A stretch of DNA of 64,000 nucleotides from an uncultured Actinomycetes bacterium (GTDB taxonomy: Bacteria > Actinomycetota > UBA4738 > JBBDHU01): assembly GCA_964640385.1 (NCBI GenBank), contig CAZXFL010000001.1, forward strand, positions 81,609 to 145,608. Reading direction: 5' to 3'. Positions 24,368-27,277 of the stretch are shown piece by piece; positions within the stretch are counted from its first letter, which is position 1; each line of letters begins with the position of its first letter. The notes under the pieces were generated by a model. That model worked only from the letters and a program-made list of their open reading frames with translations. It made no database searches and had not been told where the DNA came from. Made by a program: the position numbers and the translations under genes.

Positions 24368-24427
24368 CAGGGCGGATTGTAGTCGGCCCCCGATGGCTGC
24401 CGGCCCGTGTCCGAGGCGATCGATCGT

Positions 24428-24456
24428 CTGACGGATTCCGACCTCCCAGATAGACT
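24428..24456 (+). promoter_or_regulatory. sigmaA-type promoter of efeU (CTGACG-17-TAGACT)
   Basis: hexamers and 17-nt spacer read directly. Confidence 0.6.
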
Positions 24457-24478
24457 TTCCCGCGCTGAAGCGAAACCG

Positions 24479-24492
24479 TTAGGTAACCCTGA
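24479..24492 (+). promoter_or_regulatory. DtxR/IdeR-like iron box TTAGGTAACCCTGA
   Basis: resembles TTAGGTTAGCCTAA core; lies between promoter and SD of an iron permease. Confidence 0.7.
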
Positions 24493-24508
24493 AAGGAACG
24501 CATCGGAT

Positions 24509-25354
24509 ATGGGCGCCGCACTCCTAGTCACCCTCCGCGAAGGCATCGAAGCAGTCCTGATCATCACCATCGTCCTCGCCTACCTGAAGCAGCTCGGCCG
24601 CTCCGACAAGGCGAGGCTCGTCTGGTGGGGAACCGGAGTCGCGACCGCCCTGAGCCTGGTCGCCGGAGGCGCCATCGTCGCTGTGGGCGCCGAGTTCGAG
24701 GGCCGCACCGAGGAGCTCTTCGAGGGACTGGTGAGCCTCGCGGCCGTCGCCGTCCTCACGTGGATGATCTTCTGGATGCGCCGCCAGGGCGCCCGCATCA
24801 AGTCCGAGCTCCAGGAGCGCGTCGACTCCGCGCTCATCGGTGGCGGGCTCGCCCTGGCCGGCGTCGCGTTCTTCGCGGTCCTGCGCGAGGGCCTCGAAAC
24901 GGTGCTGTTCCTGTTCAGCGCCAACAAGGCGACCGGCGTCAACGCGTGGACAACCGTCATCGGCGGCCTCCTCGGGCTCGCGATCGCCGCCGCGCTCGGC
25001 TACCTCCTCTACCGGGGAGGGATCAAGCTCAACATGCGGACCTTTTTCAAAGTCACGGGCGGCCTGATCCTGATCGTCGCGGCCGGACTGTTCGCGTTCT
25101 CGATCCACGAGCTGCAGGAGGCCGGTCTCCTCCCCTTCCTGACCCAGACGGCGTGGGACACGTCGGCCGTCCTGCCCGACGAGACCGGGATCGGCGCGAT
25201 CCTGCGAGCCCTGTTCGGGTATCACGCGGACCCATCGGTCTTGGAGGTGGTCGCGTGGATCGGCTACCTGCTGGTGACCGGGATCTACTTCTTCCGTCCA
25301 CCGAAGCCGCTCCCGGCGCTTGCACCGGCCCCGACGGCGGCGACGACGGGCTAA
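24509..25354 (+). CDS. efeU: FTR1/EfeU family high-affinity iron permease
   Basis: two REGxE motifs (LREGIE, LREGLE), MIFWM, HELQEAG; AAAGGA SD. Confidence 0.93.
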   Translation: MGAALLVTLREGIEAVLIITIVLAYLKQLGRSDKARLVWWGTGVATALSLVAGGAIVAVGAEFEGRTEELFEGLVSLAAVAVLTWMIFWMRRQGARIKSELQERVDSALIGGGLALAGVAFFAVLREGLETVLFLFSANKATGVNAWTTVIGGLLGLAIAAALGYLLYRGGIKLNMRTFFKVTGGLILIVAAGLFAFSIHELQEAGLLPFLTQTAWDTSAVLPDETGIGAILRALFGYHADPSVLEVVAWIGYLLVTGIYFFRPPKPLPALAPAPTAATTG

Positions 25355-25597
25355 CCACCCTCGACACCCTGAGCCCCACCGCAACCGCAACGCCGCTGCA
25401 TATCCGGCGTGTCGCGGCCGTATGGGATATCCGCATCAACGATGGCGGCGATGCGCTCGTGGCGGTCGGTCGGTTGACCCTCTCATCGGCGATCGTTGAA
25501 CGTGTCACTTTTTCCACGAACTTTTCTGTCATCGCGACGATGCCGATGACCTGCGGCGCTTCGTGCGAGACCTTGGGCCGCAATGGTTTCACGGGCA

Positions 25598-25626
25598 TTG
25601 ACACGCCTAGGGCGCCTTGCTAGTTT
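25598..25626 (+). promoter_or_regulatory. strong sigmaA promoter TTGACA-17-TAGTTT with extended TGn
   Basis: perfect -35, 17-nt spacer, TGC-TAGTTT; no protein ORF follows on +. Confidence 0.8.
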
Positions 25627-25632
25627 TCGCAC

Positions 25633-25905
25633 CGGCCCCGAGCGGTCGCAGGAACCGTAGGAGCCGAGGAGCACTCCGGACCAACGGAGCGGAACGCGGA
25701 ACGCGGAAGACGCAACGAGGCGGCAACGTCACGGAGCGACGACGGCGAGACGCGGGGCGCATCGCCGGGGGGTGACGATCCGGCACCGCGGTCCCGGGTC
25801 GCTCGGGGCCGACTCTTGGCGGGTCGAAGGACCGAGTAGATAACGCTCGCGTATGGGGAAGGCGTGAGCGGCTCCAAAGGTCCTTCGGCCCGTCCTTTCG
25901 TTTTC
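25633..25905 (+). ncRNA. candidate ~270-nt structured ncRNA (Ms1/6S-like architecture)
   Basis: 12-bp perfect closing stem 25633-25644/25800-25811 plus internal helices; 3' 16-bp hairpin 25818-25833/25879-25894 and U-rich tail; promoter directly upstream. Confidence 0.72.
25818..25905 (+). terminator. terminal hairpin / intrinsic terminator of the ncRNA candidate
   Basis: ggcgggtcgaaggacc pairs with ggtccttcggcccgtc, followed by ctttcgttttc. Confidence 0.6.
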
Positions 25906-25933
25906 ACCAACGCTTTCCCCGGGGCACGCAACG

Positions 25934-27139
25934 TCAGCGGGATCGCAGCGTCCGCACCGCCTCATCTTCCGACCCGAGCGAGACCCACTGACCCGCGTTC
26001 ACCTCGGAGACCGAGATGTCGCGTGCACCCGGCTCGAGTTCACCATTTGCCGAGAATCGGTAGGTCCGAGCAAGCCCATCAGTCTCGACGAGCTCATCCA
26101 CGGCGGCGATCAGGTCTCCTCTGGTCCTTGCGCCCGCCCGAACCGCCTCGATCAACACTTGGCCCGCGTCCCAACCCTCAGCCGAGTACACTCCCGGCGG
26201 GCCACCAAACTTCGCCTGGTACTCCTGGATGAAAGCCTGCAGGGGGAGGTCGGACCCGCCGGTCACGTCCACGCAGGGACAGACGGACAGCGTGCCGTCG
26301 GCGCCCCCTGCGGCGTGGGTCAGGTACGCATCGTTGCGCGTCGCATCGCCTCCGACGAGTCGCACGTCGGTGTCCCCGGCACGATCGAGTTCCTCGCGGA
26401 GGACGGCACCGTCCGCTCCGCCGCCGCTCCAGAACACCGCCTGGCAATGACTCGCATGGATCTCTTCGGCGAGCCCGATCATGTCTTCGGCCCCGGGTTC
26501 CACGAGGAGCGTCCCTTGCGTCTGCACGCCCCGGTCGGCCAGAGCATCCGTGACCGCCCGTCCCAGCCGAACGCTCCGCGCATCGTCCGAGCCCGCGGTG
26601 CAGACCCGGCGCGGCTCGAGCGCATCGATGACGCGTGCGGCCGCCTCCGCTTGCTCCTCATCCGAGGGGACAAGCCGCCGGTAACCGGCGGCTTCGGACC
26701 CTCCAGCCGAAGCCCCGGCGGGCGACAGGTCGATCGTCGGGACCCCTGCGCCCAGCAGCTGGCCGCGCACCTGGTCTGCCTCGGGAGCGGACGACCACGT
26801 CACGGCCGCGACGACCTCAGGATCCTCCACGACCTCCTCCCGCACGGCTTCGGCGGCTATGGTCGGATCCTCCGTCGTGTCGACGCCGAACGCCACCAGG
26901 CCGACGGGCAGTTCCCCCTGCTCGTTGATCCGGTCCAGCGCCAAGCGGGTTCCTTCCAGCGCCCGGTTCGCAGGACCGCTGTTCGGCCCGGTGAGGGCGC
27001 CGATCAAGGCGACCTTCAGGTCCGGGCGATCCGCCAGGGGTGGCCGCGTCGGAACGGCCCCCGGCGGAAGGTCGCGGCATGCGGCGAGCAAGACCGCGAC
27101 CATCATCAGGGCTCCCGCGAAGGAGCGAGTGGGCTTCAT
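25934..27139 (-). CDS. branched-chain amino acid ABC substrate-binding lipoprotein (LivK-like), orphan
   Basis: lipobox LLAAC, IGALTG, YSAEGWDA, Y.F..NGE motifs. Confidence 0.82.
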   Translation of the reverse strand: MKPTRSFAGALMMVAVLLAACRDLPPGAVPTRPPLADRPDLKVALIGALTGPNSGPANRALEGTRLALDRINEQGELPVGLVAFGVDTTEDPTIAAEAVREEVVEDPEVVAAVTWSSAPEADQVRGQLLGAGVPTIDLSPAGASAGGSEAAGYRRLVPSDEEQAEAAARVIDALEPRRVCTAGSDDARSVRLGRAVTDALADRGVQTQGTLLVEPGAEDMIGLAEEIHASHCQAVFWSGGGADGAVLREELDRAGDTDVRLVGGDATRNDAYLTHAAGGADGTLSVCPCVDVTGGSDLPLQAFIQEYQAKFGGPPGVYSAEGWDAGQVLIEAVRAGARTRGDLIAAVDELVETDGLARTYRFSANGELEPGARDISVSEVNAGQWVSLGSEDEAVRTLRSR

Positions 27140-27193: not shown

Positions 27194-27277
27194 GCCGGGA
27201 TGGTGGAATTGGCAGACACGCGGGACTCAAAATCCCGTGGGCGAAAGCCCGTGAGGGTTCGACCCCCTCTCCCGGCA
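27194..27277 (+). tRNA. tRNA-Leu(CAA)
   Basis: acceptor GCCGGGA/TCCCGGC-A, anticodon arm CGGGA-CTCAAAA-TCCCG, long variable arm, GTTCGA T-loop; CCA not encoded. Confidence 0.97.

Follow-up and report, generated by a model that had tools for sequence, protein, structure and literature searches.

A conserved small RNA gene with an invariant G-rich hairpin loop in an uncultured order of Actinomycetota

Which product, if any, does a bacterial promoter serve when no protein gene follows it? The question is raised by a 64,000-nt stretch of DNA from an uncultured Actinomycetes bacterium (contig CAZXFL010000001.1, assembly GCA_964640385.1; hereafter the window), in which a 579-nt intergenic gap lies between a gene for an FTR1-type iron permease on its left (24407-25354, + strand) and a convergent gene for a periplasmic-binding protein on its right (25934-27139, - strand). 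For this gap a preliminary description had proposed a stand-alone structured RNA gene of ~270 nt, either a divergent relative of the RNA polymerase (RNAP)-binding RNAs Ms1 and 6S or a new class of non-coding RNA. We find that positions 25598-25905 (+) are an independently transcribed small non-coding RNA (sRNA) gene with two structured domains, a 5′ rod (H1) and a terminal hairpin (H2), which are listed with the other features of the locus in Table 1. The family to which it belongs has no match in Rfam 15, is uncatalogued and is not to be filed as 6S or Ms1. It is near-universal in the window's uncultured Actinomycetota order, and shorter forms occur in at least four other families that belong to other classes of the phylum. 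The conserved core of the family is the G-rich loop of H2 and not a 6S/Ms1-like rod.

A conserved gene with its own promoter and a covarying hairpin

The H2 hairpin was aligned across 136 sequences with 17 consensus pairs (alignment A1, in which three rows come from genomes flagged unpublished), and 98.4% of the cells at these pairs were paired, as opposed to 28-52% when the partners were slid against each other. Compensatory changes were present at 11 of the 17 pairs, and the observed values were reached by none of 500 shuffles; the homologues and the covariation that the preliminary description had named as a check on its structured RNA are thus both in place. The alignment also contains an invariant U-G pair and, in 74 rows, a G-U pair, which would become mismatches if the hairpin were read on the other strand, and the H2 model scored 113.5 bits in genome G002 against 32.7 bits on the reverse strand. 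Together, these observations place the RNA on the + strand. The apical loop of 9-11 nt holds the element GGGGAAGG, which was present in every examined locus found by BLAST or by covariance model, except for two weak BLAST matches (L048 and L049); loci L050-L168 were selected with a pattern that itself contains GGGGAAGG and were not counted for loop invariance. Below the apex, the 5′ strand of an internal loop (GAGUAGAnAAC) is kept in the long forms of the RNA and in families f14, f18, f11 and f40, most short forms of family f4 have another sequence there, and the opposite strand conserves CCAAAGG. The two bases before its CC vary without compensation, so that the GAGU/GCUC pairing of the minimum-free-energy (MFE) fold is unsupported.

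The RNA is preceded, at a fixed distance, by a near-consensus promoter of the housekeeping type. The pattern TTGACA-N16-18-TANNNT has a single match on both strands of the window (0.05 expected), and the next gene is convergent, in keeping with the earlier proposal that TTGACA-17-TAGTTT with its TGn extension is the best promoter of the stretch and that no protein gene follows it. A generic sigma-70 scanner did not list the site at 25598-25626, which we attribute to the fact that TAGTTT agrees with TATAAT at only three of six positions while the scanner requires at least four. Across the family, 165 loci hold the loop motif, and TTGAC(n)-16/18-TAnnnT precedes the RNA in 160 of them; four of the five misses are cut by a contig end.

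Table 1 Features of the sRNA gene and of the DNA upstream of it in the window
Feature	Positions	Strand	Basis or remark
TGTCAC then T-run, conserved upstream DNA motif	25503-25514	+	~95 nt before -35; seen in homologue flanks
ACCTGCGG, conserved upstream DNA motif	25549-25556	+	First base 49 nt before first base of -35
Imperfect palindrome TTGGGCCGCAA (family form TTGCGnCGCAA)	25573-25583	+	~15-25 nt before -35; seen in homologue flanks
-35 hexamer TTGACA	25598-25603	+	Promoter-pattern match, unique in window
Extended -10, TGC + TAGTTT (TAnnnT type), 17-nt spacer	25618-25626 (TAGTTT 25621-25626)	+	Pattern match
Predicted transcript, ~270-275 nt	25631-25905	+	Start inferred from -10, end from U-rich tail
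H1, unbranched rod, 179 nt	25633-25811	+	MFE fold
H1 closing stem, 13 bp, CGGCCCCGAGCGG / UCGCUCGGGGCCG	25633-25645 / 25799-25811	+	MFE fold
Linker ACUCUU, single-stranded	25812-25817	+	MFE fold; U-rich in most homologues
H2, conserved terminal hairpin, 77 nt, probable intrinsic terminator	25818-25894	+	MFE fold and alignment A1
H2 outer stem, 16 bp	25818-25833 / 25879-25894	+	MFE fold
H2 internal loop, 5′ strand, GAGUAGAUAA	25834-25843	+	GAGUAGAnAAC
GGGGAAGG in apical loop of H2	25855-25862	+	Invariant element of whole family
H2 internal loop, 3′ strand, GCUCCAAA	25871-25878	+	CCAAAGG
U-rich tail CUUUCGUUUUC	25895-25905	+	After H2; pyrimidine-rich tails there in homologues

The transcript predicted from these signals (~25631-25905) folds with an MFE of -148.1 kcal/mol (z = -4.65 against 200 dinucleotide shuffles), and with its conservation, its own promoter and its covarying hairpin it bears out the claim of a stand-alone structured RNA gene of ~270 nt. 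The MFE fold also contains the pairing that had been proposed for the predicted 5′ end, which is the closing stem of H1, and the proposed 3′ hairpin of 16 bp with its U tract, which is the outer stem of H2 followed by the tail. A terminator scanner did not list this site, in our reading because the Ts of the tail are interrupted. The inner part of H1 agrees less well with the first description: two of its five inner helices (accgt/gcggt and gccg/cggc) recur in the MFE fold, whereas cgtcac/gtgacg, cggcga/tcgccg and ctccg/cggag do not, and the "open region" that it called purine-rich, although 66% purine in the 5′ arm, is closed up in the MFE fold as part of an unbranched rod whose internal loops do not exceed 3x3. 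Since the middle of H1 is not conserved, neither pairing model of it can be settled by comparison.

Homologues were sought in three ways. A BLAST search with the 321-nt locus gave a match in 56 of 61 related genomes, with the 3′ 100 nt 73-93% identical across the order, the promoter and the 5′ stem also conserved, and the middle not. An exact-pattern scan with the H2 apex over 185,579 species genomes yielded at least 119 loci, and among the matches listed 77 of 80 titles were those of Actinomycetota, Actinomycetes or actinobacterial metagenome-assembled genomes. A covariance model built from H2 (R1) was run over class-level and phylum-level genome samples, whose counts include 12 genomes flagged unpublished, with no claim resting on these alone. 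The window's class was represented by 151 genomes, 101 of them of high quality, and R1 detected the RNA in 146 of the whole set and in 100 of the high-quality ones; as all 151 are labelled with the same order, the class amounts to a single order in this collection. Outside the order it found the RNA in 21 genomes, namely in 10 of 10 genomes of f14, 8 of 10 of f18, the one genome each of f11 and f40, and, as a weak match, 1 of 10 of f9, and it gave no match in the other sampled Actinomycetota families, a Streptomyces-like family included. Weak second matches of 34-42 bits were seen in genomes G014, G007, G024, G025 and G132. Outside the window, the H2 apex also recurs as a copy of 47 nt with 89% identity on contig C82 of genome G000 (2324-2370; L002:1501-1547), at the extreme end of a 2.4-kb contig and inside an apparent open reading frame (ORF) that runs off it; this copy could be an assembly join, what is left of an integration site within the sRNA gene, or a partial paralogue.

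While the promoter and H2 with its GGGGAAGG loop are constant across this range, H1 varies, and the sequence comparison marks it as a variable add-on, a 5′ extension specific to lineages. In 138 distinct sequences, the -10 box and the H2 loop are 42-254 nt apart: 12 of the sequences fall at 42-77 nt, 49 (short forms) at 91-121 nt, 71 (long forms, including the window with 225 nt) at 172-225 nt and six (extra-long forms) at 244-254 nt. This spread implies an H1 of between 0 and ~210 nt; in the forms from outside the order H1 measures 0-40 nt and GGGGAAGG is retained. The folds predict a single unbranched H1 hairpin in 61 of 71 long and in all 49 short forms, and two tips in five of the six extra-long ones, and for 20 sampled long H1 sequences the z-scores, taken against mononucleotide shuffles, ranged from -3.5 to -7.5. 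The closing stem of 13-14 bp is nearly invariant in sequence across the 71 long forms, with one compensatory column (G-C in 28, A-U in 25 and G-U in 18). The middle of H1 could not be aligned with MAFFT and RNAalifold, from which only the closing stem and an apical hairpin emerged.

Conservation extends into the DNA upstream of the promoter, where ~110 nt before the -35 box are partly conserved and in register, both across the family and beyond the order. TGTCAC occurs at -170 to -70 in 71 of 137 distinct loci. ACCTG stands exactly 49 nt before the -35 box in 65 of them and 45-50 nt before it in 97, and is also seen in families outside the window's order. A loose pattern of the TTGnnnnnCAA type, found upstream of the -35 box in 47 of the 137, matches the palindrome TTGGGCCGCAA, which is a possible regulator site. 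The conserved block (25503-25597 in the window) suggests that transcription is regulated, and it is probably a regulatory region for some factor. Protein-coding explanations were considered for both parts of the locus and set aside: the reading frame of a putative peptide upstream of the -35 box is not kept in homologues, and a small ORF through the H2 loop (AUG GGG AAG GCG UGA) loses its start in UUUGGGG variants, has UUG or another codon in place of AUG in many homologues, and loses its in-frame stop in about half of them.

Could the hairpin instead act in cis, as the leader or attenuator of a downstream gene, or be a mere shared terminator? H2 does resemble an intrinsic terminator, and in five loci (L013, L017, L020, L022 and L028) a gene for the proteasome activator Bpa (PF10759) follows on the same strand ~60-100 nt after it. 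A survey of 53 selected flanking ORFs from 28 related loci nevertheless showed neighbourhoods that differ between families, which argues that the RNA is not the leader of a fixed gene: upstream on the same strand lie genes for FTR1, ZIP, DUF554 or a 4HBT thioesterase, with polA on the opposite strand at some loci, and downstream at other loci lie convergent transporters; ABC transporters and further families were also among the ORFs surveyed. No bpa follows in the window, where the next gene is convergent; where bpa does follow, we read a separate -10-like box before its start, and the RNA keeps its own promoter and loop whatever the context. We regard a cis-acting role as very improbable.

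Signs of expression come from public sequencing runs. Sixteen RNA-labelled runs from 13 studies share a small fraction of the locus's words, and four runs were compared with the locus at the level of contigs. Contigs of 132-282 nt from three RNA-labelled metatranscriptome studies (X2, estuary; X3, riverine; X4, soil) match only within 25697-25892, cover the RNA alone and run on into the relatives' own H2 or tail sequences, a hint that the RNAs of relatives are abundant enough to assemble.

Comparison with 6S, Ms1 and other known RNAs

At gathering scores, a scan of the window with Rfam 15 returned nothing but a tRNA gene (27194-27277, +; 54.9 bits), which is located 55 nt past the point where the convergent binding-protein gene starts. 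At E<=10 the region 25400-26100 gave one meaningless match to a eukaryotic untranslated region and nothing else, 6S included, and at E<=1 nothing relevant was found in 16 homologous loci; a narrow literature search found no description of this RNA. For a conserved structured gene that stands alone, these results support the second of the two earlier proposals, that of a new class of non-coding RNA. The first, an Ms1/6S-like RNAP-binding RNA, fared worse. No 6S match was obtained (the presence of an Ms1 model in the Rfam library is unconfirmed), and the proposal is further opposed by the genes that flank the RNA, by the lack of a predicted bubble, by a rod that relatives dispense with and by the coexistence with 6S in f14, each of which is taken up below.

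Such a decoy role, in which the long H1 would bind RNAP core or holoenzyme in the manner of 6S, Ms1 or CoRP, has a rationale in the genomes themselves. With the 6S model RF00013 (gathering score 46.4 bits; control genomes detected), 6S was absent from the window at the gathering score, was not found in its whole genome (94% complete) at E<=0.001, and was found in none of 11 genomes of the order, 10 of f18 and three of the Streptomyces-like family. The window's RNA resembles 6S in being a stand-alone, highly structured RNA of the abundant type, rod-shaped and with a closing stem formed from 5′ and 3′ parts, and it is strongly promoted and single-copy. Actinobacteria, moreover, use unrelated RNAs for this role, as described for Ms1 (PMC4191392, PMC9130861) and CoRP (PMC11077062). 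Canonical 6S binds the sigma-A/sigma-70 holoenzyme, templates pRNA and carries, between its closing and terminal stems, a large single-stranded central bubble that mimics an open promoter. The differences from 6S are nonetheless substantial: the RNA has no model match, no predicted large bubble and an extra invariant 3′ hairpin, and its rod is short or absent in related lineages that conserve the rest. Family f18 lacks a detectable 6S and yet lacks the rod as well. Furthermore, a 6S could be detected in 56 of the 151 genomes that sampled the phylum, and whole families carry it. Among the 56 are the genomes of f11 and f40 and 8 of 10 genomes of f14, in seven of which the 6S match is above the cut-off and on contigs other than that of this RNA (e.g., G301, G108 and G236); this RNA is present in all 10 f14 genomes. 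A separate canonical 6S beside it means that the RNA is not simply "the 6S" of these bacteria.

The likeness to Ms1 (MTS2823/scr3559) is closer in outline, since that RNA is also actinobacterial, ~300 nt long, driven by a sigma-A-like promoter, built from a long hairpin with one or more 3′ hairpins and encoded as a single-gene unit with a terminator, as PMC4191392 describes it. According to the same source, Ms1 binds RNAP core and needs its central bubble to do so, whereas the MFE folds of our 71 long forms contain no large central bubble, the largest H1 internal loops being 3x3 to 5x5. Ms1 is also reported in PMC9130861 to be syntenic with genes for a HAD-family hydrolase (SerB-like) and an oxidoreductase, while the window RNA is flanked by FTR1 and the periplasmic-binding protein and no HAD gene is among the 53 ORFs surveyed at 28 loci; in our reading the window's lineage also lies outside the 14 orders in the taxon table of that paper. 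No Rfam family matches the RNA at E<=10, with the same caveat on the Ms1 model as above. In a Streptomyces-like genome, a HAD-flanked intergenic region next to 6C has the position described for scr3559/Ms1 (PMC9130861, PMC6582537); its predicted RNA is branched, more AT-rich and without similarity to the window RNA, although the region is Ms1 by synteny only, Rfam having called just 6C in that neighbourhood. CoRP of Corynebacterium, finally, is a lineage-restricted, abundant and structured RNA found where 6S and Ms1 are missing, and its cleavage into two parts may parallel the two domains seen here (PMC11077062). By the description in that source it is set apart from the window RNA by its 516 nt, its flanking tRNA genes and its restriction to one genus. 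Taken together, we consider a decoy role quite unlikely.

Another group of RNAs also invites comparison. The sRNAs 6C (RF01066) and RsaE/RoxS are loop-seed regulators of Hfq-less Gram-positives, short hairpins with C-rich apical loops that are shared between paralogues. As in these, the invariant element of the window's family is a homopolymer-rich apical loop that is conserved class- or phylum-wide and is common to paralogues. The loop of the window RNA, whose strand is fixed by the G-U pairs, is G-rich and not C-rich, so that any targets would be C/U-rich and not Shine-Dalgarno-like. 6C itself, which has two hairpins with C-rich loops, had no match at the locus; when 61 genomes of the phylum were searched under strict filters, the Streptomyces-like family alone yielded it. 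Three further identities were rejected. The genome's signal recognition particle (SRP) RNA, the 4.5S RNA (RF00169), lies elsewhere, on contig C11 (74.5 bits). A CsrA sponge of the CsrB/RsmZ type is set aside, since searches for CsrA (PF02599) gave no match in 11 genomes of the order and 10 of f18 and a match in 2 of 10 of f14, and so is an Hfq sponge, since none of the 11 genomes of the order gave a match to Hfq.

Possible modes of action

Four genomes of f18 bear on what the loop may do. Genomes G266, G292, G227 and G279 each carry two paralogues of a minimal form of the RNA (L187/L201, L188/L202, L189/L203 and L200/L204), and within these pairs the stems and internal loops differ and the GGGGAAGG loop is identical, as would be expected of a shared recognition element. 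An eight-base invariant loop in a covarying hairpin, paralogues that share it, and genomes in which Hfq and CsrA were not found lead us to favour, tentatively and at somewhat less than even chances, a trans-acting sRNA that would recognise a C/U-rich partner RNA through the exposed loop of H2. By analogy with 6C and RsaE, though with opposite polarity, the single-stranded G-rich loop would act in trans as the seed for a C/U-rich sequence (complement CCUUCCCC) in another RNA. H2 would in addition end transcription and protect the 3′ end, and H1 would protect or scaffold the 5′ end and, in the long forms, might add a second function dependent on double-stranded RNA (dsRNA). A pseudoknot between the loop and the 3′ tail, which was also considered, was rejected, since GGGGAAGG was not more complementary to the tails than permuted versions of the loop were (rank 23 of 28).

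Several points weigh against pairing as the function of the loop. No partner was identified in the window's genome by a motif search near gene starts and among stable RNAs. The motif search covered 1851 crude translation-initiation windows and met CCTTCCCC in 7, a weak excess over the 2.9 expected, and the seven flanking genes checked are unrelated (a phage-tube-like protein, two response regulators, DivIVA, an aquaporin and others) and form no regulon. The stable RNAs gave only trivial matches, in two tRNA-Arg genes, in a genome where rRNA including the 16S 3′ end is unassembled. The metatranscriptome contigs cannot show ends, strand or level, which leaves expression as just a hint. The internal loop of H2 (GAGUAGAnAAC / CCAAAGG), conserved at the level of sequence, has more the look of a site for protein or tertiary contacts than of an accessory of a seed, and a seed model has no explanation for the stable H1 rod (61 of the 71 long forms) or its nearly invariant closing stem.

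Among individual sites, two adjacent genes of G000 (contig C40, 6380-10932) carry CCTTCCCC(C) exactly between the Shine-Dalgarno sequence and the ATG, one of them encoding a phage tail-tube domain, and an OmpR-type response regulator on contig C18 carries GGAGGTCTTCCCCATG. These are the best-placed complements of the loop, and the genes are functionally unrelated.

The same observations can be read in favour of a protein-binding RNA, in which the internal and apical loops of H2 would dock some protein and the RNA would sequester, scaffold or deliver it; in a variant of this reading, the H1 rod may be the ligand of a dsRNA-binding protein or a substrate of RNase III. With a protein partner, the conservation of the internal loop and the invariant sequence of the closing stem would be easier to account for: the unpaired nucleotides of H2 are invariant across classes, the closing stem is conserved beyond what pairing needs, H1 stays a rod though its sequence diverges, and the target search in the window's genome was unconvincing. 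Yet no protein gene accompanies the RNA consistently, searches of 11 genomes of the order gave, as noted, neither CsrA nor Hfq, and most short forms of f4 keep the apical loop but have another sequence in place of the internal loop. We hold this reading to be rather unlikely, though it deserves more credence than the RNAP decoy, and retain loop-mediated pairing as the one tentatively preferred.

The two domains could also have separate roles. An ancient hairpin sRNA with the GGGGAAGG loop, common to several deep classes of Actinomycetota, may have been extended, in an order without detectable 6S, by a rod of 50-210 nt whose closing stem is invariant in sequence, and would then combine loop recognition with a rod that titrates RNAP or another machine that binds dsRNA. 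This is an improbable proposal in our estimation; if true, it would mean that a 6S-like regulator arose independently once more, after Ms1 and CoRP.

Significance for the lineage

Relatives of the window's bacterium are known from soil, groundwater and sediment metagenomes, according to record titles and run labels. To our knowledge the lineage has no model organism, and we know of nothing reported on its RNA regulators. Against this background, the RNA, found in 146 of the class's 151 genomes and with an eight-base loop unchanged across classes, ranks in conservation with housekeeping RNAs such as 6C, 6S and SRP RNA. The covariance model built here can be used to annotate it in metagenomes and metatranscriptomes. 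The family thus adds a new and very conserved regulator candidate in a major uncultured actinobacterial lineage, and its promoter, loop and rod give a handle on global RNA control in deep-branching Actinomycetota without Hfq, CsrA and, in this order, detectable 6S.

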